Shown piece after piece: positions 8,396-28,285 of a stretch of 32,883 bases of DNA. A program made the translations under genes and the position numbers. Source of the stretch: a virus; the IMG/VR virus record IMGVR_UViG_3300049218_000083, positions 133,861 to 166,743 of that record. One strand, given 5' to 3'. The notes under the pieces are model-generated. The model did not search any database. It was given only the letters and a program-made list of their open reading frames with translations, and was not told the DNA's origin. Position 1 is the first letter of the stretch. Each line of letters opens with the position of its first letter.

Positions 8396-8664
8396 GTTGC
8401 AGATACCTCGGTTGTTGCAGCGACTACATCAGTGGCTGGCTCGATAGCCAATGCCTTGTCCAGCTTCTGGGTCTTGAAACGCTTTGCCGTTGCATGTGCG
8501 TCGATGAAAAGTTTACGCAAAGAACGCTCATAGCCTTCTGGACCAGCACCCTTGTGAAGCTGACGCAATTCCTTGTTGTGTGTTCCTACTGGAGAAACAC
8601 TCAGATCAGCCAGTCGCTTTAGTTCCCGTGGAAGACGACGGTTGAACGTCGATCGGTTTGCCAT
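8392..8664 (-). CDS. Small basic hypothetical protein (90 aa)
   Basis: GAGG SD upstream; tight packing with neighbours. Confidence 0.75.
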   Translation of the reverse strand: MANRSTFNRRLPRELKRLADLSVSPVGTHNKELRQLHKGAGPEGYERSLRKLFIDAHATAKRFKTQKLDKALAIEPATDVVAATTEVSAT

Positions 8665-9382
8665 TATCTATTTCCTCTTTCAGTAATTCGTCACACTTTC
8701 TCAAAAACCGTTCATGCTGTCCGGCAAGACGAATCTGGAAGTTATGCCAGAAAGACTCCTCGCCAGTCAGCGGATCAGCAAACGTCGTACCAAGACCATA
8801 CCGTGGCATACCGTCCGCAAGAGCCCAGCCTTGCGGAGCCTCGAGTGGAGCAGCTTCAAATTCAGCTGGCATATAGAACTTCACGGGAATACCGTGCTTT
8901 TCACATAGCCAAGTGTACTCTTCAGCCACATCAGATCTCGAAGTTTCTAGAGCCGATGGTCTACCAATCGTCAAGAAGGTTGAATCACTTATCGCCATCG
9001 CGCTAGGAGCCACGAAGACATGCTGACCATTCTGTATATGGTTGGTACGTTGGATGTTTCCAACCAACGACCCATTATACGCTTGTTCGATGTAACTATC
9101 AATGGCTCTATCGTTCAGTGGCACGGCATCGATATCCAGGAACATGATAACATCGAAGTCATACTGTTTTGGAACCTTACCCAAGAATTCTTTTCTGACG
9201 ACTGAACCGTTGAGGTGCCAGGTGCAATCCATCGAGAAACCATGCGGCATCTGTGTCAGGATCTGGAAAAACGGCACATTGCTCTTGTTGAACTTGTCGA
9301 CGACTTTACGTTGTGCCGTGATCGCTTCCTTTGGAATGTTGCTCATGTAGAATGAGAATATTCCTGCTCTTATTTTATCCAT
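8606..9382 (-). CDS. Putative GT-A fold nucleotide-diphospho-sugar transferase
   Basis: Hydrophobic strand + DxD (VIMFLDIDAVPL), SDVAEE acidic motif, late His (FWHNF); overlaps the methyltransferase gene. Confidence 0.65.
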   Translation of the reverse strand: MDKIRAGIFSFYMSNIPKEAITAQRKVVDKFNKSNVPFFQILTQMPHGFSMDCTWHLNGSVVRKEFLGKVPKQYDFDVIMFLDIDAVPLNDRAIDSYIEQAYNGSLVGNIQRTNHIQNGQHVFVAPSAMAISDSTFLTIGRPSALETSRSDVAEEYTWLCEKHGIPVKFYMPAEFEAAPLEAPQGWALADGMPRYGLGTTFADPLTGEESFWHNFQIRLAGQHERFLRKCDELLKEEIDNGKPIDVQPSSSTGTKATG

Positions 9383-10002
9383 ACGAATTTCTCTCTTCTG
9401 TCGTAGACTTTACCAAACAGTTCGCCGACTGCTTGTTTGATTGGTGGATGATGCCAGTCGTCGCCGATCAACACGCCTCCCTTTTTGAGGATGCTTGCCC
9501 AGTTTGATAGGTCATTCTTCACAGAACGATAATCATGGCCGGCATCGATATACACTGCGTCCGGATACAATCCCAACTTCGTGAAGGCGACGAAACCGTT
9601 CTGTGAGTCGATCGGGAATGGTGTGATGTAAGGATCGAGACCCTTGTGGACGTTGTTGGATAGGAACTGCTGATAGAGTGTTGGTCTGCCGTTGACGAGG
9701 TTGAGACGGTTGCCGGGATAATGTTGATCACCGACCCAATGCTCTTCACTCCCCAACCATGTATCTATACAGACAACCTCAAAGTCTTGCGCGTAGTCTA
9801 ACACGACGCTGGTCATCGCTCGCGCGGAGCCGCCCATCCAGGATCCAACTTCGACGATCAGCTTTGGATTGAAATGGGGTGACAGGAACTCTTTGAAACA
9901 AGGATGGTTACTGACAAATCCGTGGCCGTTGAATGGCATGAGTTCAAGATCCTTGTATGGATCATGATCACCAAACAACTTCTTACGAACTATTTGCGCC
10001 AC
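9370..10002 (-). CDS. Class I SAM-dependent methyltransferase (Methyltransf_24-like, probable O-methyltransferase)
   Basis: IVEVGSWMGGS, VVCIDTW, VYIDAGHDY, LKKGGVLIGDDW. Confidence 0.85.
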   Translation of the reverse strand: MAQIVRKKLFGDHDPYKDLELMPFNGHGFVSNHPCFKEFLSPHFNPKLIVEVGSWMGGSARAMTSVVLDYAQDFEVVCIDTWLGSEEHWVGDQHYPGNRLNLVNGRPTLYQQFLSNNVHKGLDPYITPFPIDSQNGFVAFTKLGLYPDAVYIDAGHDYRSVKNDLSNWASILKKGGVLIGDDWHHPPIKQAVGELFGKVYDRREKFVWIK

Positions 10003-10727
10003 GGAAATCCTTCTGGATATCGCTTTGCCATCTCCTCGTTTCCACGAATGAAGAACGAAGAACTGACCGAGATACCTGTACTGTCAGTCGTATAGTTTAC
10101 CGTGTATTTGCCAGTCCCAATACCGGGAGCTGTTGCGGCCAGTGCTTTCACTAATGCTCGATCGACTTCCATCACGTTTGGCTCTCGAGCCTTACGATAC
10201 CAAATCGGAGTGACGAACACCGCAAGGTTCCTGTGAATGAAATAGCAGTTGACATCGACAAGTCTGTCATCCTTGTGTAGGATGGTAGGATAGTCTGGGC
10301 CGAGGCTTTCACAATCATCGTTACACTCGACGCCATTAGCATCGATAACCTTGCGTAGACTCCATCCCCAACCATACTGACCGCTGGTTACAGCCGCGAT
10401 GCAACTCTTGATGTGATTAGCGTCGATGTAATTGTCATCGTCAAGGTACATGACATATTCACCTTCTGCCAGGAAGGTTGCTGCCGCATACATTCGATGA
10501 CCATTCCATCGATCAGCACCAACGATACGTGGCATCTCAATGACTTCGTGTTTGTGGAAACCTTTGATCGATGCGTTGTATCCAATCTGCTTGACTTTGG
10601 AATGTGCAGGTGGCCCATCAGCCATGATGATATGCTGAATGTCAGCGTGCGTTTGTTGCGCAACTGACGCGATGCAGCGCAGTAGTGAATCACGACCAGT
10701 TGTAGCCGTGACGACAGTGACAAGCAT
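9990..10727 (-). CDS. GT2-family glycosyltransferase
   Basis: VTVVTATTGR, SVAQQT, HIIMADG, YVMYLDDDN (DxD), EVDR catalytic region. Confidence 0.88.
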   Translation of the reverse strand: MLVTVVTATTGRDSLLRCIASVAQQTHADIQHIIMADGPPAHSKVKQIGYNASIKGFHKHEVIEMPRIVGADRWNGHRMYAAATFLAEGEYVMYLDDDNYIDANHIKSCIAAVTSGQYGWGWSLRKVIDANGVECNDDCESLGPDYPTILHKDDRLVDVNCYFIHRNLAVFVTPIWYRKAREPNVMEVDRALVKALAATAPGIGTGKYTVNYTTDSTGISVSSSFFIRGNEEMAKRYPEGFPWRK

Positions 10728-12737: not shown

Positions 12738-12942
12738 TTAGCTTCTTCCTTCGTTCTTCTATTTTGTCAATGACATCCAGCTTCTCATCCTTAGAGTATC
12801 CACTCCATTCTGAGATTTCTCTGAGCGTCCTCAAGCATCCACCACAGTAACCAGTTCGGCTATTGACGCCGCACTGATTCGTACATGGTTGAGTTGGTTC
12901 TCGCTGAACCTCTAACCACCATGCGTCGTTCATACTTCCCAC
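12688..12942 (-). CDS. DUF1289-like Cys-rich small protein
   Basis: PCxxxC...GYCxGCxRTxxEIxxW pattern. Confidence 0.75.
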   Translation of the reverse strand: MGSMNDAWWLEVQREPTQPCTNQCGVNSRTGYCGGCLRTLREISEWSGYSKDEKLDVIDKIEERRKKLNEGTSGERSPSGVLPD

Positions 12943-13412
12943 AATTGGACATTACATTCACGCGCATACTGCCGAACTTTTTCGAACGCTGGACCCCAAC
13001 GAGTCAGCTGTTCTTGGGTTGCCTTCGGTGCTACAAACCGCACGATTCCATTCTGGACCATCTGTACAAAGCATCGATCGCAAGGCATGAATGGCGTGGT
13101 ATATAGCGTGTATCCTTTCACTGGCTCACGAGAGTGTGCCAACGCATTTATCTCACCGTGAATGATACGACTATACTTCTCTTCACGGTTCGCATACAAT
13201 TCAGCCTTGTCAGGCATTCCACGTGGGAAACCGTTGAACCCAACTGAGCACACGCTGTTGTCTGGACGAACAATGACTGCGCCAACCTTGGTTGACGGAT
13301 CCTTTGATCGAGATGAAATGTACTGACACATTTCAAGATAGAAATCATCCCAAGATATTTGAGATGGTGTTCTCCACTCAGGGAGTAGAATCATCGATGT
13401 TAGTTCGTCCAC
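12930..13412 (-). CDS. cd: dCMP deaminase
   Basis: SKDPSTKVGAVIV, GFNGFPRG, HGE, PCxxC zinc motif. Confidence 0.92.
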   Translation of the reverse strand: MDELTSMILLPEWRTPSQISWDDFYLEMCQYISSRSKDPSTKVGAVIVRPDNSVCSVGFNGFPRGMPDKAELYANREEKYSRIIHGEINALAHSREPVKGYTLYTTPFMPCDRCFVQMVQNGIVRFVAPKATQEQLTRWGPAFEKVRQYARECNVQLWEV

Positions 13413-18273: not shown

Positions 18274-19005
18274 TCACTGGGTATAGAGTTTCCACGCTTT
18301 CAGGTAATTGTGTTCAGCAATTTCCCATGACCAATTATACTTGATACCACCAAACGATTCGAGATATGATGCTACAACTTCCTTGATTCCATCCTGGCTT
18401 GGCCAGTCTGCACCTTTGGTGACCATCAGACTATCAGCCTCGACAAACAGCGCGATGATGTCAGCACGCTTGCAGCCTTCGGTAATCTTTGATGGTAATT
18501 TGAACTGTTCACGCAAACGCGCATCCAGTTTGCTTTCAATCTCTTTGTACTGTGGCAGTAAGACCTTCCATGGTGATGGAATATCTGCCAGGTACGCTTC
18601 CGTTCCATCATGCAGCAATCCTTCCACTGGATTTCCTAGATCAAGGTCCTGCATGATTTGAGAAACAAGAACACAGTGCTGCGCGACGGAGTAGAACTCC
18701 ACGCAGTGTCCGTTAAATCTGCAGAGCTTGCTGAGTGCAGAAGCTATTACATTAATGTCGAATGGACTTCGATCTATGTAAAAGTTCTTACCATTGACCA
18801 GTTCAATGAACAGGCCATCGGTCATCTTTTCTTTGTATACTTCGTCAGCTTGCTTTGTAGGAACGAACAAGGGATCAACCTCACTGCTTAAATAGCAACA
18901 GGGAACGCAGTGATAAACACCTGGCATCCTGTGACACGAACAAGTACAACCACCGAAAGCTTTCGGCAAGTCCTTGTTGAAATAATTATTCGGAAGAAGG
19001 CTCAT
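18274..19005 (-). CDS. HD-domain 5'-deoxynucleotidase (YfbR/YfdR-like) with a Cys-rich N-terminal extension
   Basis: CRFNGH, YSVAQH, LLHD..EAY..DI.SP.K, KRAD. Confidence 0.85.
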   Translation of the reverse strand: MSLLPNNYFNKDLPKAFGGCTCSCHRMPGVYHCVPCCYLSSEVDPLFVPTKQADEVYKEKMTDGLFIELVNGKNFYIDRSPFDINVIASALSKLCRFNGHCVEFYSVAQHCVLVSQIMQDLDLGNPVEGLLHDGTEAYLADIPSPWKVLLPQYKEIESKLDARLREQFKLPSKITEGCKRADIIALFVEADSLMVTKGADWPSQDGIKEVVASYLESFGGIKYNWSWEIAEHNYLKAWKLYTQ

Positions 19006-19363
19006 TGTCTATCACCTGTCGAACTGCTTCTTCCAGAGTATTGTCTGGCTCCGGACGTTTGATCACAACATAACCAGCACGCTCAAGAGCAGCGATCTTG
19101 TTGTGAAGACGCATCTCTTCTTCTAGTTTGTCCTGGCGACGCTTCGCCCAAAGATCAACACGAATGTGATCCTGAAAATCTCCAGGATTCTTCAACTCTG
19201 GTATGGTCTCAGACAAATACACGTTGATGTTATTGATCCTGAAGTGAACTTGATCACTCAAGGTTTGCAGTTGTTCCTTCAACTGAGCCTGTGTTACACA
19301 TGGCTCAGCTTTCGGTGGAAAAATATCTTCCGCTGCTTTGCAATCGCAATTACTGCAACCCAT
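18986..19363 (-). CDS. Hypothetical protein (125 aa)
   Basis: AGGAG SD; packed between 45 and the HD gene. Confidence 0.75.
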   Translation of the reverse strand: MGCSNCDCKAAEDIFPPKAEPCVTQAQLKEQLQTLSDQVHFRINNINVYLSETIPELKNPGDFQDHIRVDLWAKRRQDKLEEEMRLHNKIAALERAGYVVIKRPEPDNTLEEAVRQVIDNEPSSE

Positions 19364-19364
19364 G

Positions 19365-20087
19365 TTAGGCTCCTACGACGCCTTCCTCAAGCAACTGAGG
19401 CGCATCGAAAGAAGACTGCTTGGACTCGATCGAGATCCAATACTGAAGCTTCTTGGTCTTGTGTGTGAAAAGAGAAACGCCAACCTTGGAAATCTGCACC
19501 GTGTATTCGCCTGGGATGACCTTCAGGTTGTCGATCTTGAAGACTGCCTTGAAGTTGGCAGAAGCAACGGTGCCCAGCTCTACGCTTGCACTGTCAACTA
19601 CTTCACCCTTCACGTCGACCGCAGAGATGGTGATGTTCTCACCAGCTTCACCGGCGACAACGATGTTTGGACACTTCAGGATGCTCGATACGTTGAACAC
19701 CCAATCGAAGATTTCTTGAGTTAAAGTCAGATCGACGTTGAACTTCTCGATCTTCAGTTCCTTGGATGGCGGACCCATGATAAACTTGGTGTCAGTGAAA
19801 CGCTGACGAATCTTACCCTTGCCATTCAGGCCAAGGAACACGAATGACTCGTTTTCGATTTCCACTTCCAACGCGCTCTTGTTCAATGACAACAGCGCCA
19901 GCAACTTGTTCAGGTCATAGATACCAAACTCATTCTCGAACGTCTCATCTACAACCGCACGAGCAAGGATTGTCTTGTTCTGGGAGATGGTACGGATCAC
20001 ATTGCCTGGCTTGATAATCAAACCGCTGTTGATCGATGCAAAATTCTTCAGGACTTCAACAAAGTTCTCACTCAATTTCATGTGCAA
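19365..20087 (-). CDS. 45: Sliding clamp (T4 gp45-like)
   Basis: LKNFASINSG, FGIYDLN, NLKVIPGEY, YWISIE. Confidence 0.96.
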   Translation of the reverse strand: MHMKLSENFVEVLKNFASINSGLIIKPGNVIRTISQNKTILARAVVDETFENEFGIYDLNKLLALLSLNKSALEVEIENESFVFLGLNGKGKIRQRFTDTKFIMGPPSKELKIEKFNVDLTLTQEIFDWVFNVSSILKCPNIVVAGEAGENITISAVDVKGEVVDSASVELGTVASANFKAVFKIDNLKVIPGEYTVQISKVGVSLFTHKTKKLQYWISIESKQSSFDAPQLLEEGVVGA

Positions 20088-20116: not shown

Positions 20117-20737
20117 TTAACGCTTGGCGTATTCGGTAATTTTCACCTGTAATTCTTGCACTGTACCATCATTTCTGATTACAGTTTGCAGCAACGGATG
20201 ACCGATCCATGCCCACTCCGAATAGTGAACCTCTGGATATTGCGGCATGGTTTGAACTGTTCCATCCCAATTGTTTGCTTCGTTGATGGCAACAGCAGTG
20301 CTGTACCAGGCTGGCCTCTCACCACGCATGATCTGTGCAAGCTTGCCGCCAACGTGCATGACCATTTCGATTTCATTTGGAAAGCGAACATCAGTTATGA
20401 CGTAATCCTTGGTCGTGTCCAAACTGCGCAGCAATGCACCAACCCATAGATCCTTTCCGAACACATTGCGACCAGCTTCAGTGCCCATCCATTGGAGCAC
20501 TAGACGTGGTGTGATAGTCTTCTTCAACACAGCTGACCAGTACTCGTCAGGCTGTTCACGAAACGCACGTGATTCCGGTGTGTCACCTTCAAGTAAATGA
20601 CGTGGCCATCCGAAAATAACCGCAACAGCATCTTTCAGAATCTTAGCAAACGATACTGGAGTGAATCCGTCAGCTGCTAGGAGCTCTCCAGCAGTTCCCT
20701 TGCCCGATCCAATGATGCCTAGAAATCCAACGATCAT
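20117..20737 (-). CDS. Deoxynucleoside monophosphate kinase (T4 gp1-like)
   Basis: GIIGSGKG, SFA..LKD, PRLVLQWMGTE, ITDVRFPNE, HYSE. Confidence 0.92.
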   Translation of the reverse strand: MIVGFLGIIGSGKGTAGELLAADGFTPVSFAKILKDAVAVIFGWPRHLLEGDTPESRAFREQPDEYWSAVLKKTITPRLVLQWMGTEAGRNVFGKDLWVGALLRSLDTTKDYVITDVRFPNEIEMVMHVGGKLAQIMRGERPAWYSTAVAINEANNWDGTVQTMPQYPEVHYSEWAWIGHPLLQTVIRNDGTVQELQVKITEYAKR

Positions 20738-20883
20738 AATTCATCCTTCTTAAAGGCTATTGGCACCGCATAGTTCTTAGCTTTGTGCCAGCTTTCCTGT
20801 ATCTCTTCTTGCGTTGCAGCAGGAGGTGATGGATATTCGATTGGACCTTTTGCTGGCGTCTTTGGTTTGGTCGACTCGGTCAT
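20734..20883 (-). CDS. Small hypothetical protein (49 aa, MTESTKPK...)
   Basis: ATGA overlaps at both ends favour the start at 20883 over the track start at 20949. Confidence 0.6.
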   Translation of the reverse strand: MTESTKPKTPAKGPIEYPSPPAATQEEIQESWHKAKNYAVPIAFKKDEL

Positions 20884-21110
20884 ACTGGGTCCGCCGTTAC
20901 ACCAAGAACACCCTTGGCATCTGGCTCCGGAAGGCTCAACACCTTCCAAGATTTACCAAGTGGTTCTTCTCCATCTGGTGCCTCTTCAATGATCGCGATG
21001 ACTTCACCAACCTGAACACCTGCTAATCCAAGTTGTTCACGCCTTTCTCCGGTTACAGAAACGACTGAGAACTTACGCAGTTCGAATGAAGTATCGATAC
21101 CCTTGATCAT
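20880..21110 (-). CDS. Hypothetical protein (76 aa)
   Basis: TAATG coupling to the glycosyltransferase gene. Confidence 0.7.
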   Translation of the reverse strand: MIKGIDTSFELRKFSVVSVTGERREQLGLAGVQVGEVIAIIEEAPDGEEPLGKSWKVLSLPEPDAKGVLGVTADPV

Positions 21111-22096
21111 TACAGATTTCCTACCAATTGCGCAACCGCAGCCATGTTACCTTGGAACGCATACGTACCGACGTGGAACGTGCGCATCCATGGACACAAC
21201 CAAATTTCTCCACCCATGTTGCGCCACTGTTGACAGAAGAAATAGTCTTCTGACAAATAACGCTCAGATCCACCGACTTCAACAATTTCACCCTTCTTGC
21301 GTTCACCCAGGTCCTGTTGAATTTCCATCTGACGCTTCTTGTCGATGATGCAATCAAAGTATGCGTGAATGTAACGAGATCCATCAAAGTTAGCTTGACC
21401 GACATGGTCAGGCTTGTAGCTGTACTGAGGATACTGAAGAGCCCAACGCAAGAAGACCTCGCGCTTGATCATCATGTAACCTGTACCGATCTCCATAACC
21501 TTCAGTGGTTCACCGACGTTGAACTGACCTGTTCCAGCAACTGGATTGAAGACATAGTCTCCAATGGTTTGTTCAACTTCCTGAGAGGTCAACTCTTTTG
21601 GAACATCATACAGTGGCTTGGCGATAACTGCCCCATCTGCAGTTGGACCAGCAGCCTGTGCAGCCATGTTTTCAGCAGCAATCTCGATGTTCTTCTCGTT
21701 GACCGTCTTGATCAGGCTATGACGTTTGTTGATAGCTGTAATCGCACTGTTCCACTTGATAGACTTCTTTGGATATGGTGCACCAATGATGTCCTTGTCG
21801 AGTGCCATCAAAGCCAACACATCTTTCGGATCGAAGTGAATATCGGCATCGAGGAACAACAAGTGTGTGTAACCTGAACGCAGGAACTCATCGACCAGGT
21901 AGTTGCGAGCTCGCGTAATCAAGGATTCGTTGAAGATGAATGAGAAGCGATTCTCCATTCCGTACTGACCGCACATACCCTGAAGGTCAAGGCATGCTTT
22001 CATGTACATACCAAGGCACATACCACCATACATTGGAGTGGCGATGAAAAGCTTGTTCTTACGTAGCTGCTCAACACTGATTGATAAATTTACCAT
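21110..22096 (-). CDS. GT-A fold glycosyltransferase
   Basis: FIATPMYGG, ESLITRARN, LLFLDADI (DxD), GTGYMMI.R, YLSEDYFFC, HVG. Confidence 0.85.
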   Translation of the reverse strand: MVNLSISVEQLRKNKLFIATPMYGGMCLGMYMKACLDLQGMCGQYGMENRFSFIFNESLITRARNYLVDEFLRSGYTHLLFLDADIHFDPKDVLALMALDKDIIGAPYPKKSIKWNSAITAINKRHSLIKTVNEKNIEIAAENMAAQAAGPTADGAVIAKPLYDVPKELTSQEVEQTIGDYVFNPVAGTGQFNVGEPLKVMEIGTGYMMIKREVFLRWALQYPQYSYKPDHVGQANFDGSRYIHAYFDCIIDKKRQMEIQQDLGERKKGEIVEVGGSERYLSEDYFFCQQWRNMGGEIWLCPWMRTFHVGTYAFQGNMAAVAQLVGNL

Positions 22097-22165
22097 TTGG
22101 GATCCTGTTCTTGTTATTAGAGGCGGATGATTACCAATAATACCGCAGCAAACTGTAAAAGGAAA

Positions 22166-22732
22166 TCAACCTAAGATCAATTCGTCAATGAGATACTGAA
22201 TGATCTTGTGCTGATCTTCTGGTGTTTCGTTCACATACGTTTCAGACAGCGGCATCAGAACCATGTTTGACATGAGATTTTCGATCTTCGTTTCACGACC
22301 ACGCTTGAACGTATCTGTTTGCGTATCGTTCCGAACTTCATGACGAGCATGAATTGTTGCTGGACTTGCTGTAATGAAGATGATCTTCAGGTCGAGCGTA
22401 GGATCATCCGCAAGCAATTCCAAAAAAGACTGATTGAAAAGACGGTCACCCTCGAACAGCACATTGCCTGTTGTCTCTTTGACAAACTTTACAGCTTGCG
22501 GCTGAACAGCCATTGAGAGGCGATCAGTTCCACCGAACGGTTCACCCTCTGGGTACTTACCGATGATGTGCAAGTTTGATCCAGACATATAGAGTGTAGG
22601 GACTAGCTTCACATCCTCACGCTCAAACCATGTCGCACCTGGTCGACGATCTTCGGTTGACTTGATGAACTTCTTCATTATGGTCGACTTGCCAGTCGCT
22701 GGTTCGCCGCCGATTGCTATAATTTTTCTCAT
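22166..22732 (-). CDS. P-loop nucleotide kinase of the type linked to phage base-modification loci
   Basis: GGEPATGKST, IGKY..GE.FGGTDRLSMAVQP, FEGDRL; ATGA-coupled to the dioxygenase. Confidence 0.8.
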   Translation of the reverse strand: MRKIIAIGGEPATGKSTIMKKFIKSTEDRRPGATWFEREDVKLVPTLYMSGSNLHIIGKYPEGEPFGGTDRLSMAVQPQAVKFVKETTGNVLFEGDRLFNQSFLELLADDPTLDLKIIFITASPATIHARHEVRNDTQTDTFKRGRETKIENLMSNMVLMPLSETYVNETPEDQHKIIQYLIDELILG

Positions 22733-24030
22733 CCGAACAAATGCTCCAATGAACTCTCTTCTTCAAGAGGGTGATATTTGTCAACTAGAACCTGACCAAA
22801 ATTCTGGCCAAGGAACTGATACCATTCATCCGACTCCCACATACCTGGGCTGATTCCATTCCAACCGTTTCTCCAAAGCTTGTGGTCCTGGTTCTTGCGG
22901 CGCGACTCTACAAACTGAAAGCGAGCATCTTCGTATCGTTTCTCACCCAGTTCGAGCATCTTCTCTCGCAAGTAACACACCAGGCTGATACGCTCAAGCT
23001 CGACACCCTCTTTCGCAACGATTGGGGTGTTCCCATGGATGTACTCATGGTTGGAAACCAACAACAAATCACCCGGACGAATGTTCACTGCTGCTCTGAT
23101 CTCTGGGAGAATCAGATAGCCACCTTGATAGTCAAGGTTCTTGGCAACGACAGTTAGGTTCGAGAACCCAGCGGCAAAGTCGCCTGCGTCGCGGTGCGCT
23201 GCTGTACGGAAGTTCTTGTTGACAGTGATAGTCGTCAGTGGTGTTCCAGGAATCCGGAACGCTGGATCGATCTTATCCGCTGCCTCCATCTGTGCAGCAT
23301 ATCGCTTTGGTAAGAACTCCTTGAACGCTGAACTCAGCCGCTCCATGAATGGATAGCAAAGTTTCCAGGTGTCGAAATTCTGTGCCGTGTACGCTGTAGC
23401 TCGACCATACGGAATGCGCGGATACCGATCAAACCAGCCGGCAATACCAGAGTCGACAGGATTAGCGTAGAAGGTATCGCTGATCAAATCAGACAACACC
23501 CACTTGGCTTCTTTGCGGACCTTCTCGAGAGGGAGGCCATAAAGACCGTTCAGCCACTGTTCAAAATCGAACTTGTGTTTCTCTTTCTCGGACGTCAACC
23601 AAACCATGCCGCGAGTGCCCTGCTTCTTGTTAGCCACGAAGCGGATCTGCTCGATGTCAGTTTTCAAGTCTGTGAAATGACTGGAGCCAAGGTCGACAAG
23701 ATATTCGAGAACGTCGATTTGCTCATCAGTCACCCAGTCGCGGTTCAACAGCTTTGGGCCCAGGGAGCCAGCTGCCAGGCCACGGTTTTGAGTGGCGTGC
23801 ACAGCTCCGCGTAGACCGTCATAGGCACCGATCTGTTCAGCCTTGGTAAAGTAATTCTTGCGAAACTTCAGGATGACGTTACTTTCATCGTTCACCTGTT
23901 CAGCACCCATGGGCAGCTTGAGATATACGTCGCAGTCTTCATCCAGCAACGTATCGTAATGAGCCTCGTCTAGAAATTGACCGAGGAGGTGGTCACAATC
24001 ATGTTTCTCGAGAACTAGAACTTTTGTCAT
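22729..24030 (-). CDS. TET/JBP-family 2-oxoglutarate/Fe(II) dioxygenase
   Basis: TTITVNKN..TAAHRD (HxD), GDLLL...IHGNT (distal His), RISLVCY (2OG-binding Arg); C-terminal SLEHLFG. Confidence 0.85.
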   Translation of the reverse strand: MTKVLVLEKHDCDHLLGQFLDEAHYDTLLDEDCDVYLKLPMGAEQVNDESNVILKFRKNYFTKAEQIGAYDGLRGAVHATQNRGLAAGSLGPKLLNRDWVTDEQIDVLEYLVDLGSSHFTDLKTDIEQIRFVANKKQGTRGMVWLTSEKEKHKFDFEQWLNGLYGLPLEKVRKEAKWVLSDLISDTFYANPVDSGIAGWFDRYPRIPYGRATAYTAQNFDTWKLCYPFMERLSSAFKEFLPKRYAAQMEAADKIDPAFRIPGTPLTTITVNKNFRTAAHRDAGDFAAGFSNLTVVAKNLDYQGGYLILPEIRAAVNIRPGDLLLVSNHEYIHGNTPIVAKEGVELERISLVCYLREKMLELGEKRYEDARFQFVESRRKNQDHKLWRNGWNGISPGMWESDEWYQFLGQNFGQVLVDKYHPLEEESSLEHLFG

Positions 24031-24127
24031 GGAATCTTCCGTAATGATGGAACCCAGGCACTGACACCTGGGTCCCGATTCAACCGCATATTCTGGTATA
24101 TATGCGATACCACTTTCATCTACTACA

Positions 24128-24156
24128 ATTCTATACTTTATGAAGAGTCCTGTAAA
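24128..24156 (-). promoter_or_regulatory. Sigma70-type promoter for the dioxygenase-kinase operon
   Basis: TTTACA-N17-TAGAAT about 100 nt upstream of ATG 24030. Confidence 0.7.
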
Positions 24157-24232: not shown

Positions 24233-25885
24233 TCACCCGCCAGTCGCGACCAGCTTCGCCATCTCTTCAACCGTCTGGTCGAGAAGGTCGCCGGTAGCCG
24301 CGAGGATGTCCGAAGCGGAAATCGTACGCTTGATACCGAAGGCAGTCACCTCAGCACCGCCAGTGGCCTTGTTCCGGATACAACGCACCGAGTGCTTGTA
24401 TTTGGAGGAAACCGCTGCAACGTTGCGGGGATCGCCGAAAGTCATGGCAGATATGTCGAACGTGGTAGTCTTACCAGCAGCCTGACGGAGCGCGAGAAGC
24501 GCATCCTTCTTGTTACCAGCAGCCGTCGTCGCCGTCTTGGCAGGAGCCATCGGGCTGGAAGCAGGTTTCGGGGCAACAGGAGGCTGGTTAGCCGCAGCCG
24601 CATGAGCATTCTTACGCAAGGCGACCAGCGGATCCTGGGCAGTAGCCGCAGGAGCAACCTTCGCAGCCTGTGCAGGAGCCTGGGCGACGTTCTTCTGGCC
24701 AAACACGATCTTCTTGTCGAGGTCGGCGTCGATCTTCGAGTAGAAGTCCATGTAAACCGTCTTGACTTCGTTGTCGAAACGATTCAAGCACAACTCGATG
24801 GCCTTGCGGCGAGTCTTGAAGATGCAGTAAGCACGAACGATGTGGGTCAACCGGCGAGTGGAGATCACTTCCGAGACCGAACCAGCGGCATAACCCTGGC
24901 GGATCATCTCAGCCCACTTCGCAAGGTGCGCCGCGAACTGCGTCACGTTCAGCTCAGGTTCCGGCTTCAGTTCGTTGAAGAGTTTCTCGAGAATCGACCG
25001 CTCGGTCTTCTCGCTGGGATATTCCTGCTCCACCGTGATGGCGAACCGTTCCAGGAACGCGTCGTTCAGCACGTTGGCACCGATGAAGCGACCGTCGTCC
25101 GAGCCTTTGCCCTTGGTGTTGGCAGTAGCCATCACGTTGAAGCCAGGAGCCGGAGTGATGTACTCACCACGCTTCTTGTTGAAGTAGCCTTTGCCTTCGA
25201 GGATGGGCTGCAAGCACAGGAGGCGCTCAGAGCCATAGTCGGTTTCGTCCAGGAGAAGAACCGCGCCACGCTTCATGGCGACGACGACCGGACCATCGCG
25301 CCACTTGGTGTCACCATTGACCAACTCGTAGGCACCGATCAGGTCGAACTCGTCAGTCTCCTTGGTGATGTTCACGCGGATCAACTCACGCTGTGCCTCG
25401 TTACAAGCCTGGGCGACCATCAGGGTCTTACCGTTGCCGGAGAGCCCAGTGATGTAGACAGGGTAGAAAATCTTCGAGGCGATGATTCCCTTGAGATTGT
25501 TGTAGAAGCCGAAGGGGACGTAGCCAGGCTCCTTCTCAGGGATGAAGTTATCTTTGATCACGGCAGGTTCACCATCCGTGATGTGGAGAACGTTAGCAAC
25601 CGCTGTGGCGACCATGTTTTCGTTGGCCGCCTCGCGCACCACGTTGGCCGGATGCAAGAAACGGGAGTCGGTGGCGTCACCTGCCACGCGGAACTTGCCC
25701 CAACCAGCCTTGTATGTATCGGCGGCGAGGAACCGGGGATTCTTGTAGCCTTTGGCTTTCACGAAGTCATCGACCTGTTTAGAGGTCACGATATCGGTGC
25801 CGTAGAAGGCAGAGATTTCGGCGCAGAACTGCTTCTGCTGCGCTTCATCGTAGGATCGGGATTTAACAGTCACTTCAGTCTCCAT
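24233..25885 (-). CDS. MoxR/CobS-like AAA+ ATPase with a long C-terminal extension
   Basis: GLSGNGKT, LLLDE, ATANTKGKG, AFLERF, ISTRRL. Confidence 0.92.
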   Translation of the reverse strand: METEVTVKSRSYDEAQQKQFCAEISAFYGTDIVTSKQVDDFVKAKGYKNPRFLAADTYKAGWGKFRVAGDATDSRFLHPANVVREAANENMVATAVANVLHITDGEPAVIKDNFIPEKEPGYVPFGFYNNLKGIIASKIFYPVYITGLSGNGKTLMVAQACNEAQRELIRVNITKETDEFDLIGAYELVNGDTKWRDGPVVVAMKRGAVLLLDETDYGSERLLCLQPILEGKGYFNKKRGEYITPAPGFNVMATANTKGKGSDDGRFIGANVLNDAFLERFAITVEQEYPSEKTERSILEKLFNELKPEPELNVTQFAAHLAKWAEMIRQGYAAGSVSEVISTRRLTHIVRAYCIFKTRRKAIELCLNRFDNEVKTVYMDFYSKIDADLDKKIVFGQKNVAQAPAQAAKVAPAATAQDPLVALRKNAHAAAANQPPVAPKPASSPMAPAKTATTAAGNKKDALLALRQAAGKTTTFDISAMTFGDPRNVAAVSSKYKHSVRCIRNKATGGAEVTAFGIKRTISASDILAATGDLLDQTVEEMAKLVATGG

Positions 25886-25954: not shown

Positions 25955-28285
25955 TTACAATCCCTCGGCGACTTCGGCGGCGAACTCGCGGACGATAGTC
26001 TTCACGTTCTTTTTCTGGTTCATGTGGTGGTTAAAGCTGGACTGGGCAGCTTCCTGGGACATTCCAACGCTGACCCGCAATTCCGCCTTGTAAGTCATCT
26101 TGGCGGTGTCGATGTAGTAGTAGCTATCATAGCCGAGGTCCGGAGTCGAGACCCAGCCGTTCTCCTGAAGACGCTTGGTCAGCTCCCGTGCTTTCGGAGC
26201 CAGCGTTGGGTTTCGGCCGATCTTCATAGTGATGATAGCAGAGTCGCCGAAGAAGTAGCCGATATGGCGGCAACCAGTAATCTGGCCAACCAGCTTGGTC
26301 AGCGCAACCTGATACGGAACAAACGGCGAGATGGTATTGTCCGGCAACTGGCTCAGTTTGGTCTTCGGGTCAATCAAGCCGAAGATCGTTTTCTGCCGCT
26401 CAGAGTGAGACATACGACCCTGCTCATCACCGAAGCTGATGAAGCCATCACCGTCACCGTCGGTCAAGTGAATCACACTGGTGATATCCACCTTGTGATT
26501 ATTCTTGAACTCCTCGATTATTTGACGAGAAGCAAGCAGCATGTGCATGTAGGGAGTGCCGCCAGTCTGGTAACCCATGGTAGCAATGTTCACCGCCCAG
26601 TTAGGATTCTTCGTGAGAATGTCTTTCACAGTTTGATCGCGGTTGGAAGAATTACCGATCTGGGCCAGCGCGTGGAGCATGTTCATCGCACGCTGATAGT
26701 TGGAACCACGCAGATTCGAAGAGAACATATGGCGAAGGTTGAATCCACTGCAGTAAGAGCGCTCCGCGAGCATCACACCGTTGGTACGGTTGGCCTGGAT
26801 CAACGATCCGCCAGTCGAGTAGTTGTAGCTATGCTGGTCACCGAAACCGTAAACGTCGAACGGGATGTTCACACGCTTGCAGAAGGTCGTCAGGATCAGC
26901 ATCTGTTCAACGATCTCCTTGATGATTGGGTCCATCGAGCCACTCAGGTCCAGGAACAGAATCATGCCGTGGGACTTGCCCTTGGTCACCGTGGTGATCT
27001 TACGGAAGATGTCATTCGTGAACTTGTAGCGGTTCAGCTTCTTGTCATCCAACTCGCCGGTCTTGGCGGTCAGCTGGCGCGCATACTGGTTGGCGTTTTT
27101 GCGCATCTCGAATTCTTTCACCAACATGTCGATGTAGTTCTTGTTGCGACGAAGGAACGCAGTATGGAGTTGCGCACACAGGGTGCCGAAGTTGTAACCC
27201 TCGGCAGAACAAGCACGACCGAACTCTGTCTCGAACCGTTCCAGAACAACCTTGTGAGGAACGATACAACGCTTCAGGTCAACCTTCGGCAAGTCGGCGT
27301 AGATAATCTGGGGAGCGCTGCTGTTGATCAGGTCGTCTTCCATCTTACGCTGGGCAGCATCAGTTATGGAGTCCGGCTCCGGCGTCGAATCACGCTCTTC
27401 CTTGCTCAGGCCAGCGCCAGGAGCGCTCGGGCCATCTTCCACTTCACCCTCGCCGTCAGCGTCGCCATCAGATTCACCATCGGCATCGCCGTCAGATTCT
27501 TCATCACCCTCATCCCCATCACCAGAGCCTTCGCCGTCGGCGTCATCGCCGTCGCTCTCGTCTTCACCGTCATCGGGATCCGTAGAGCCAGCCTCGGTTT
27601 CGCCTTCTTCGTCACCCTCACCTTCGTCGCCCGACTCACCAGCTTCTTCCTCGTCGCCGGCATCGTCTTTCTCTTCCTTCTTTTCCTGTTTCTTCTGCTC
27701 GTCCTTGGCCTGATACTTTTGGAAGTCGTAGATCTCGCGAGCGAGCTCAGCAACTTCATCCCAAGTCTCGACGGTGGCCACACGGTCAACGAACTTCTTT
27801 TCGGCAGGTGAGAACTCGACCAGCACAGACGCGCCGATCTTGAAGTAAAGGTTGATTCGGTCGATCAGACCCAGCTTCGAGAGGTCCTTGATCTTCTTCA
27901 CACCGAAAAGGTCACGGTCGGCCAGAGCCTGATAAGCTTCGGCGAACGGTTTCCGCAGGCCAGGATACTTGCGCTTAACGATTTTCTCAATACGCGCATC
28001 CTCGACCACGTTGAGGAACCGTTTGATATTCTTGCGCTTCGTGTCATACACGATGGCGTCATGCCAGCCATCGGCAGGCGTGTGCAGCGCGTGGGAGATC
28101 TCATGACCCATCAGAAGGTCATAGATGTTAGTGTCCATGTCTTTCCAAACCGGGCAGTGAAGCACGCGGTTCTTCAGGTCGAACTTCGCGGTGCGGATCT
28201 GGCGGTGGTGGACGGTGATATTCTCGGCAGCCATCAGCTTGGCTAGAACAGACTTGTTAGAGGTCAGGTCAGTTTGCTTTTTCAT
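25955..28285 (-). CDS. CobT-like protein: HExxH metallopeptidase-like domain + acidic linker + VWA domain
   Basis: HEISH, NVVEDARIE, about 100-aa D/E/G linker, MIDAS DLSGS, GGTP, LTDG. Confidence 0.88.
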   Translation of the reverse strand: MKKQTDLTSNKSVLAKLMAAENITVHHRQIRTAKFDLKNRVLHCPVWKDMDTNIYDLLMGHEISHALHTPADGWHDAIVYDTKRKNIKRFLNVVEDARIEKIVKRKYPGLRKPFAEAYQALADRDLFGVKKIKDLSKLGLIDRINLYFKIGASVLVEFSPAEKKFVDRVATVETWDEVAELAREIYDFQKYQAKDEQKKQEKKEEKDDAGDEEEAGESGDEGEGDEEGETEAGSTDPDDGEDESDGDDADGEGSGDGDEGDEESDGDADGESDGDADGEGEVEDGPSAPGAGLSKEERDSTPEPDSITDAAQRKMEDDLINSSAPQIIYADLPKVDLKRCIVPHKVVLERFETEFGRACSAEGYNFGTLCAQLHTAFLRRNKNYIDMLVKEFEMRKNANQYARQLTAKTGELDDKKLNRYKFTNDIFRKITTVTKGKSHGMILFLDLSGSMDPIIKEIVEQMLILTTFCKRVNIPFDVYGFGDQHSYNYSTGGSLIQANRTNGVMLAERSYCSGFNLRHMFSSNLRGSNYQRAMNMLHALAQIGNSSNRDQTVKDILTKNPNWAVNIATMGYQTGGTPYMHMLLASRQIIEEFKNNHKVDITSVIHLTDGDGDGFISFGDEQGRMSHSERQKTIFGLIDPKTKLSQLPDNTISPFVPYQVALTKLVGQITGCRHIGYFFGDSAIITMKIGRNPTLAPKARELTKRLQENGWVSTPDLGYDSYYYIDTAKMTYKAELRVSVGMSQEAAQSSFNHHMNQKKNVKTIVREFAAEVAEGL

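Follow-up and report, generated by a model that had tools for sequence, protein, structure and literature searches.

A probable thymidine-hypermodification locus in a T4-like phage from moss that keeps its P-loop kinase and lacks the AADT transferase

Which base does a phage modify, and into what, when its genome places a TET/JBP dioxygenase beside a P-loop kinase, a glycosyltransferase and a nucleotide kinase? The question is raised by a block at positions 20117-24156 of a 32,883-nucleotide stretch (the window), which forms the last 32.9 kb of the 166,743-bp IMG/VR record IMGVR_UViG_3300049218_000083. The record (CheckV completeness 98%) represents an uncultured T4-like phage that was recovered from moss metagenomes. 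Among cultured phages, Stenotrophomonas phage DLP6, Caulobacter phage Cr30 and phage C48C1 stand closest to it, with proteins about 45-50% identical. No near-identical DNA was found in cultured phages by megablast, the sole match being a 102-nt piece of a deoxynucleoside monophosphate (dNMP) kinase gene. We propose, at a probability of roughly 0.6, that the block represents a thymidine-hypermodification locus of a type already published (TET_JBP, kinase and AADT), from which the transferase, AADT, has been lost. The gene content, catalytic residues, genome-wide absences, synteny and phylogenetic position described below were observed directly.

An earlier note on this DNA had named five genes here, and all five lie where it placed them, on the minus strand. 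They encode a TET/JBP 2-oxoglutarate (2OG)/Fe(II) dioxygenase of 433 aa (TET; 22729..24030), a P-loop kinase of 188 aa (22166..22732), a GT-A-fold glycosyltransferase of 328 aa (hereafter GT-A; 21110..22096), a T4 gp1-like dNMP kinase of 206 aa (20117..20737), and the gp45 sliding clamp, probably of 238 aa (19365..20081). The ATGA overlap between the TET stop and the kinase start is real, and GT-A and the dNMP kinase do stand in that order directly before gp45. Because the same order recurs in dozens of related contigs, it does not reflect chance.

The TET protein scores 82.9 bits against the Pfam Tet_JBP profile PF12851 (2e-23), for which the cut-off is 34.9. The residues of the Fe(II) triad, H279, D281, and H332, and the 2OG arginine, R347, are invariant across 34 family members. 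An AlphaFold2 (AF2) model of the protein, which has an N-terminal extension of about 220 aa, reached a pLDDT of 82. Its best PDB matches are TET2 in complex with DNA (Foldseek 2e-10), followed by CcTet and NgTET1, with a TM-score of about 0.45.

These three structural neighbors act on 5-methylcytosine (5mC), as do the characterized clade A/B phage TETs (PMC8256090). The dioxygenase could accordingly belong to a cytosine route, in which 5mC is oxidized to 5-hydroxymethylcytosine (5hmC) and then glycosylated or phosphorylated. The partner of such a route, a cytosine C5-methyltransferase (PF00145), had not been recognized in the window by the earlier note, and it is absent from the whole record as well. 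The same holds for the records of five relatives, three of them complete genomes, namely DLP6, Cr30, phiM12, and two IMG/VR relatives (G001 and G002, the latter 100% complete). The whole record also contains no ThyA-family enzyme (PF00303), no dUMP hydroxymethylase, and no dCMP methylase or hydroxymethylase of the ThyA family. Sister cassettes carry AADT together with the kinase, enzymes that have been characterized on DNA derived from 5-hydroxymethyluracil (5hmU). Restriction data for DLP6, described below, hint at a modification of a base other than T somewhere in the clade, but we consider the 5mC route very improbable here. Nor is a TET without a C5-methyltransferase the oddity that it had seemed, since only 6% of phage 5mYOX pathways were found to include one (O'Toole et al., PNAS 2026; PMC13229309).

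Thymine is the other candidate substrate. The genome encodes ThyX (outside the window, record positions 128188-128805; PF02511, 9e-53) and a dCMP deaminase (12930..13412, minus strand; PF00383, 6e-16). Thymidylate would therefore be made in the ordinary way, and thymine would be available to the dioxygenase. The TET gene is also linked to genes of thymine hypermodification or to glycosyltransferases, namely the kinase here and AADT, GATase, GNAT, PLP (pyridoxal-phosphate) or GT-B enzymes in relatives. The earlier suggestion that T is oxidized to 5hmU in DNA thus gains support that is indirect but strong. It comes from the absence of a C5-methyltransferase in this phage and five relatives, and from sister phages in which TET stands in an operon with AADT, the same kinase, and tailoring enzymes. 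Judged by this genomic context, TET is most likely a post-replicative thymine dioxygenase that converts T to 5hmU in DNA.

The setting of TET in related phages is particularly informative. A search of IMG/VR with the TET protein returned 80 loci at 52-60% identity. They share a common frame, gp55-gp47-gp46-PDF-CobT-CobS-TET, then a variable cassette, then GT-A-dNMP kinase-gp45-gp44-gp62-RegA and, further on, dCMP deaminase. The cassette varies in form. The first is a single GT-B enzyme of 442-444 aa with no kinase, present in 19 loci. The second is GATase-GNAT-AADT-kinase, the third is GATase-298aa-AADT-kinase, with or without a 443-aa protein of unknown function, and the fourth is PLP-AADT-kinase. 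The comparison shows a hot spot in a large T4-like clade: between TET and GT-A, both of them fixed, thymine cassettes of the amino-acid type and the sugar type replace one another.

In 32 of the 36 IMG/VR loci that have the kinase, AADT (PF18724, 1.3e-20) directly precedes it, with the end of AADT overlapping the kinase start. The remaining four (L006, L013, L029, and L030) carry proteins of 437-447 aa and 116-122 aa instead. Neither protein has a Pfam match (L046 representative, L006 member), and both are possible alternative partners of the kinase. Among the six closest database relatives of TET and the kinase (58-66% identity), all six have the arrangement TET-(PALP)-AADT-kinase-GT-A, the PALP gene being variable, and where the sequences extend further the dNMP kinase and gp45 come next.

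In the phage studied here this neighbor of the kinase is missing. The earlier note had seen no alpha-glutamyl/putrescinyl-thymine pyrophosphorylase (aGPT-Pplase) gene in the window, and PF18724, the AADT family formerly called aGPT-Pplase2, is indeed not found in the whole record. The HMUDK_hel family (PF18723) is likewise absent from the whole record. Six-frame searches of the genome, using BLASTP at 1e-4 and clade-specific hidden Markov models at E<=10, detected no relocated or decayed cassette gene other than the kinase. A contig of 697 nt, obtained from another moss sample, crosses the junction between TET and the kinase without a difference, and the junction is therefore not an assembly artifact.

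We also placed TET in a maximum-likelihood tree. It falls inside a clade of eight with support of 100/99, and all seven other members carry AADT and the kinase. Because TET nests among these members, the absence of AADT is best explained as a secondary, lineage-specific loss. The lack of aGPT-Pplase to which the earlier note had pointed is, on this phylogeny, a derived state of a familiar design and not a new one.

The kinase itself shows no sign of decay at its conserved positions. It retains all 25 family-invariant residues, and the Walker A motif GEPATGKS, the FEGDR motif, and R130, R134, and R146 are intact. Its match to PF18751 (Ploopntkinase3) scores 27.3 bits, just above the cut-off of 27, and the same domain is carried by nearly all of the homologues listed. 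A BLASTP comparison with Pseudomonas phage M6 gp54 detected no similarity. At the profile level, hhalign aligned the kinase family with gp54 at 94.9% probability (E 4e-8) over the N-terminal 89 of 188 columns. Homologues of the kinase occur in Cr30, which also has TET and GT-A but lacks an AADT beside its kinase, in the Melnitz phages, where they adjoin TET, and in Rhodococcus phage Tonitrus, whose genome authors annotate a five-gene thymidine hypermodification system there. 5-Hydroxymethyluracil DNA kinases (5-HMUDKs) such as M6 gp54 make 5-phosphomethyl-dU in DNA, and phosphorylation alone blocks NcoI (Lee et al.; PMC8989533). From its relatives and residues, we infer that the kinase is a 5-hydroxymethyluracil DNA kinase without its usual transferase partner.

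A further feature of TET bears on whether it acts on DNA. Its C-terminal tail, SSLEHLFG (22732..22755, minus strand), is a candidate sliding-clamp docking peptide that resembles the end of the same phage's gp43 polymerase, STLESLFGE. The pattern (S/T)TLEDLF[GA] ends nearly all complete TET homologues among the 80 loci, with L428 and F432 invariant. Among 254 open reading frames, only gp43 and TET carry the motif within their last 12 residues. In relatives, gp43 ends in SLEDFFS and the cassette GT-B ends in STLDDMFG, while AADT ends in GLEA[LI]W, a looser likeness. The tailed enzymes of sister cassettes were examined at L007:11290-12624, L023:12607-13614, and L046:14732-15760; the kinase and GT-A have no such tail.

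We then modeled the last 44 residues of TET with the gp45 trimer. The predicted complex reached an ipSAE of 0.58, compared with 0.00 for the best control. At least 50% of the contacts recur between runs, and the partner pLDDT is 37 or more. The mark that this complex passes was also passed by 58 of 80 solved complexes and by 2 of 110 mismatches, although at an ipSAE of 0.60 or below only 7 of the 80 solved complexes passed, along with both of the passing mismatches. Since a like complex has been solved, that of the RB69 clamp with a polymerase peptide (1B8H), the pass may reflect memory on the part of the predictor. The model therefore lends weak support to docking of the TET tail on the gp45 clamp. 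Taken together, the likeness, conservation, and uniqueness of the tail and the predicted complex favor action of TET on DNA at the replisome. The same tails suggest that several post-replicative modification enzymes, TET and the sister GT-B among them, dock on the sliding clamp. Riding on the clamp could explain rapid modification of a whole genome.

These observations bear on two further possibilities. The earlier note had allowed for oxidation at the nucleotide level. In such a scheme TET would hydroxylate dTMP or dTTP, and both kinases of the block would phosphorylate the modified nucleotide for incorporation. Two nucleotide-kinase-like genes beside a dioxygenase, in a genome lacking a dUMP hydroxymethylase, would fit such a scheme. 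However, the dNMP kinase is a fixed neighbor of gp45 whatever the cassette, the partner of the P-loop kinase family is AADT, an enzyme acting on DNA, and TET combines a polymerase-like clamp tail with the fold of DNA-acting TETs. No TET/JBP enzyme is known to use free nucleotides as substrate. The analysis found no support for this scheme, and we regard it as extremely improbable. Equally remote is an RNA substrate, for example m5U54 of phage tRNAs, with the neighboring genes unrelated to the reaction. Some TET and AlkB enzymes do oxidize RNA bases, but DNA is favored by the coupling of TET to AADT/kinase cassettes in related phages, by its clamp-like tail, and by its place among genes of the replisome.

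The role of GT-A is harder to assign. Its AF2 model (pLDDT 94) has a confident GT-A fold, with STIV A197, Mnn9, and the LH3 glycosyltransferase domain as the best Foldseek matches. R64, the D83xD85 motif (D83-A-D85), S282-E283-D284(-Y285), and H308 are invariant or nearly so. R...DDD...EDY/F motifs have been reported for phage GT-A DNA glycosyltransferases and for the trypanosome base-J glucosyltransferase (JGT) (bioRxiv 10.1101/2023.12.21.572611), and R...DxD...EDY in GT-A resembles these published motifs when compared by motif description. The family (phrog_1574) comprises 7154 clusters, and an ESM Atlas look-up of GT-A returned only viral glycosyltransferase clusters without names. We regard GT-A as a conserved gp45 neighbor and, on its motifs, a candidate DNA glycosyltransferase.

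Many GT-A homologues are interrupted by inteins, one or two apiece, that carry LAGLIDADG endonucleases (P0125, P0126, P0128, P0136, P0138, P0158, and P0161). In several of them the intein starts near query residue 124, close to the position of a long additional helix in GT-A (115-148). As the genes that inteins invade are usually important and strongly conserved, the family probably matters to the phages that carry it.

The motifs of GT-A raise the possibility that the end product resembles base J. TET would make 5hmU in DNA, GT-A would glycosylate it, and the kinase would be a leftover of the deleted AADT cassette without a role. Several observations point this way. All 56 related loci that extend far enough have GT-A along with TET, and DLP6, whose DNA is reported to resist restriction, has TET and GT-A only. 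The T4 a-gt gene, moreover, lies inside the 47-55 replication and recombination cluster. Yet GT-A stands beside AADT cassettes and GT-B cassettes alike, and in the latter the tailed GT-B is the obvious DNA glycosyltransferase. GT-A also occurs in phiM12-type phages without TET and lacks the polymerase-like tail, while the supposedly idle kinase keeps every invariant residue and its translational coupling to TET. On balance we consider this outcome unlikely, although it is the main rival to the reading proposed here.

The dNMP kinase falls just below the Pfam DNMK cut-off (26.9 bits, compared with 27.1) and matches PHROG 139 at 1e-36. In 49 related loci it adjoins GT-A, regardless of which cassette is present, and we read it as a probable component of ordinary nucleotide supply. 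A 76-aa open reading frame (20880..21110, minus strand) without a Pfam or PHROG match lies between the two genes here, and relatives also have small open reading frames at this place. The four genes need not form a single pathway, because GT-A and the dNMP kinase are fixed neighbors independent of the cassette and GT-A also occurs without TET.

For the proposed thymidine-hypermodification locus we infer the chemistry throughout, as follows. Ordinary dTTP would be supplied via dCMP deaminase, ThyX, and dNMP kinase, and the genome would be replicated with T. TET would then oxidize T to 5hmU on the DNA polymer, probably while docked on gp45 through its polymerase-like tail. The ATGA-coupled kinase would phosphorylate the new hydroxyl to give 5-phosphomethyl-dU (5-PmdU). 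In all close relatives, AADT and the PLP enzyme would next replace the phosphate. With the AADT and PLP genes deleted, the pathway here would end at 5hmU or 5-PmdU, or be diverted. GT-A may glycosylate 5hmU in the manner of base J. Because the transferase that its closest relatives keep has been lost, the phage DNA probably carries an oxidized or phosphorylated thymine and not an amino-acid adduct.

Several observations weigh against this reading. TET is considerably longer than the characterized phage T-dioxygenases, which measure about 290-300 aa, and some ParB-less enzymes of clade C1 were inactive on T or 5mC in E. coli (PMC13229309). The kinase matches PF18751 and not PF18748 (HMUDK_HMUD1), the family of the characterized 5-HMUDKs including M6 gp54, and its remote match to gp54 spans only the N-terminal half. 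Because its product has no known consumer without AADT, the kinase could also be a relic that has not yet decayed. GT-A, which carries no polymerase-like tail, has homologues between gp46 and gp45 in phiM12-type phages without TET, and another in the small phage MW202753, which has neither TET nor a ThyA-type enzyme; the presence of GT-A thus does not depend on an enzyme making 5hmC or 5hmU in the same genome. Finally, DLP6 DNA, listed in a review table as restriction enzyme resistant (PMC8228603), reportedly withstands 18 restriction enzymes, some of them with sites made up of G and C only (PMC5349666, PMC8228603), which modification of T alone does not obviously explain.

A more specific version of the thymidine-hypermodification reading is that the packaged DNA carries a share of its thymines as 5-phosphomethyluracil, installed by a clamp-tethered TET and the orphan kinase, with the phosphate itself serving as the anti-restriction group. 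We consider this version doubtful. If true, 5-phosphomethyluracil, which has until now been known solely as an intermediate of the pathway, would be an end product. In any case the locus amounts to a naturally occurring knock-out of the transferase step, in a phage that is otherwise intact and in circulation, and it raises the question of whether 5hmU or 5-phosphomethyl-U suffices as a protective end state.

The surroundings of the block provide additional observations. The sigma70 promoter that the earlier note placed before TET corresponds to a sigma-70-like match, TTTACA-17-TAGAAT (24128..24156, minus strand; 10/12 matches), in the 202-nt gap between CobS and TET. The site exists as described, but such sites are no commoner than in shuffled sequence, and it is retained here as a candidate. 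Between this site and the TET ribosome-binding site lies a perfect 10-bp G+C-rich inverted repeat, GGGACCCAGG...CCTGGGTTCC (24048-24075, minus strand). The repeat could form a transcript-stabilizing or regulatory hairpin; relatives have a small HTH_39 gene in that gap instead.

Upstream of TET are genes for a CobS-like AAA_5 ATPase (24233-25885, minus strand) and a CobT-like VWA protein (25955-28285, minus strand). Their G+C content is 0.53-0.56, compared with about 0.46. The pair is invariably found directly upstream of TET in the clade, and a functional link to the dioxygenase, such as metal loading or remodeling, is possible.

On the other side, the gp45 open reading frame as listed (19365-20087) opens with TTG. 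Since relatives begin with MKLS, the true start is probably the ATG at 20081. The gp45-family profile matches the RB69 and T4 clamps (1B77/1B8H and 1CZD) at 2e-28. Beyond gp45 lie an HD phosphohydrolase, gp44, an EndoVII-like gene, gp62, and RegA. The 243-aa HD-domain phosphohydrolase (phrog_318, 'dNMP phosphatase') and a 125-aa open reading frame are inserted between gp45 and gp44 (18274-19363), where neither is present in any of the 80 related loci. We considered the phosphatase as a clue to the pathway and rejected it, as the family occurs in 305 phage records, including temperate ones, and its similarity to M6 gp59 is faint.

Upstream of gp43, at 8606-10727, are overlapping genes for a GT2 enzyme, a Methyltransf_24 protein, and a 258-aa protein. 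All three are present in G001, and the GT2 and 258-aa genes are present in G002. The idea that they compensate for the lost AADT was discarded because G001 and G002, which carry these genes, also bear AADT; the genes are a feature of the clade.

Comparison with known systems places the locus among several partial likenesses. As in the base J pathway of kinetoplastids (JBP1/2 and JGT), a TET/JBP enzyme, here a putative thymine dioxygenase, shares one locus with a GT-A enzyme bearing R...DxD...EDY. Unlike in that pathway, the GT-A family here also occurs without TET, and DNA glycosylation is only a candidate function. GT-A matches next to gp45/clamp genes have been noted in the preprint on phage GT-A DNA glycosyltransferases (bioRxiv 10.1101/2023.12.21.572611); in contrast to the enzymes described there, GT-A here best matches A197, Mnn9, and LH3, and not TarP.

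Phage thymine dioxygenases have been divided into 5mYOX clades C1, which is ParB-dependent, and C2, which is ParB-independent (O'Toole 2026; PMC13229309). Compared by description, the locus resembles both in its Tet_JBP core, in the lack of a neighboring C5-methyltransferase, and in the association with kinases, AADTs, GATases, and glycosyltransferases. AAA and HTH genes, listed in the neighborhood legend of that study, are also found in this phage's clade. Unlike the tested 5mYOX enzymes, TET has its long N-terminal extension and a clamp-type tail, and unlike in the ParB-dependent C1 subclass, no ParB_N domain (PF02195) was found in the genome at E<=0.1.

In the pathway of Pseudomonas phage M6 and Salmonella phage ViI, phosphorylation of 5hmU in the polymer is the activating step, as it would be here, and the kinase family of this phage is a probable remote homologue of M6 gp54. 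There, however, a dUMP hydroxymethylase, a ThyA homologue, makes 5hmU before replication, whereas here it would arise after replication. In M6 and ViI (5-HMUDK gp54, AADT gp51) the phosphate is always displaced, while this genome encodes no displacing enzyme.

The closest likeness is to the metavirome clusters of Lee et al. (NAR 2021/22; Fig. 2, sequences 22-25; PMC8989533), which combine TET_JBP, a 5-hmdU DNA kinase, and aGPT-Pplase2/AADT. In those clusters, as here, TET/JBP replaces the dUMP hydroxymethylase beside a P-loop base kinase, and no cytosine methyltransferase is present. They differ from this genome, which lacks AADT, the tailoring genes, and HMUDK_hel and has a kinase of PF18751 rather than PF18748. 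Their gene set is exactly that of this phage's nearest relatives, which add PLP, GATase, or GNAT tailoring genes. The class of pathway, with TET-made 5hmU, a base kinase, and amino-acid transfer, is thus already published (PMC8989533, PMC13229309); the specific features here are a kinase kept without its transferase and the hot spot at which cassettes are swapped.

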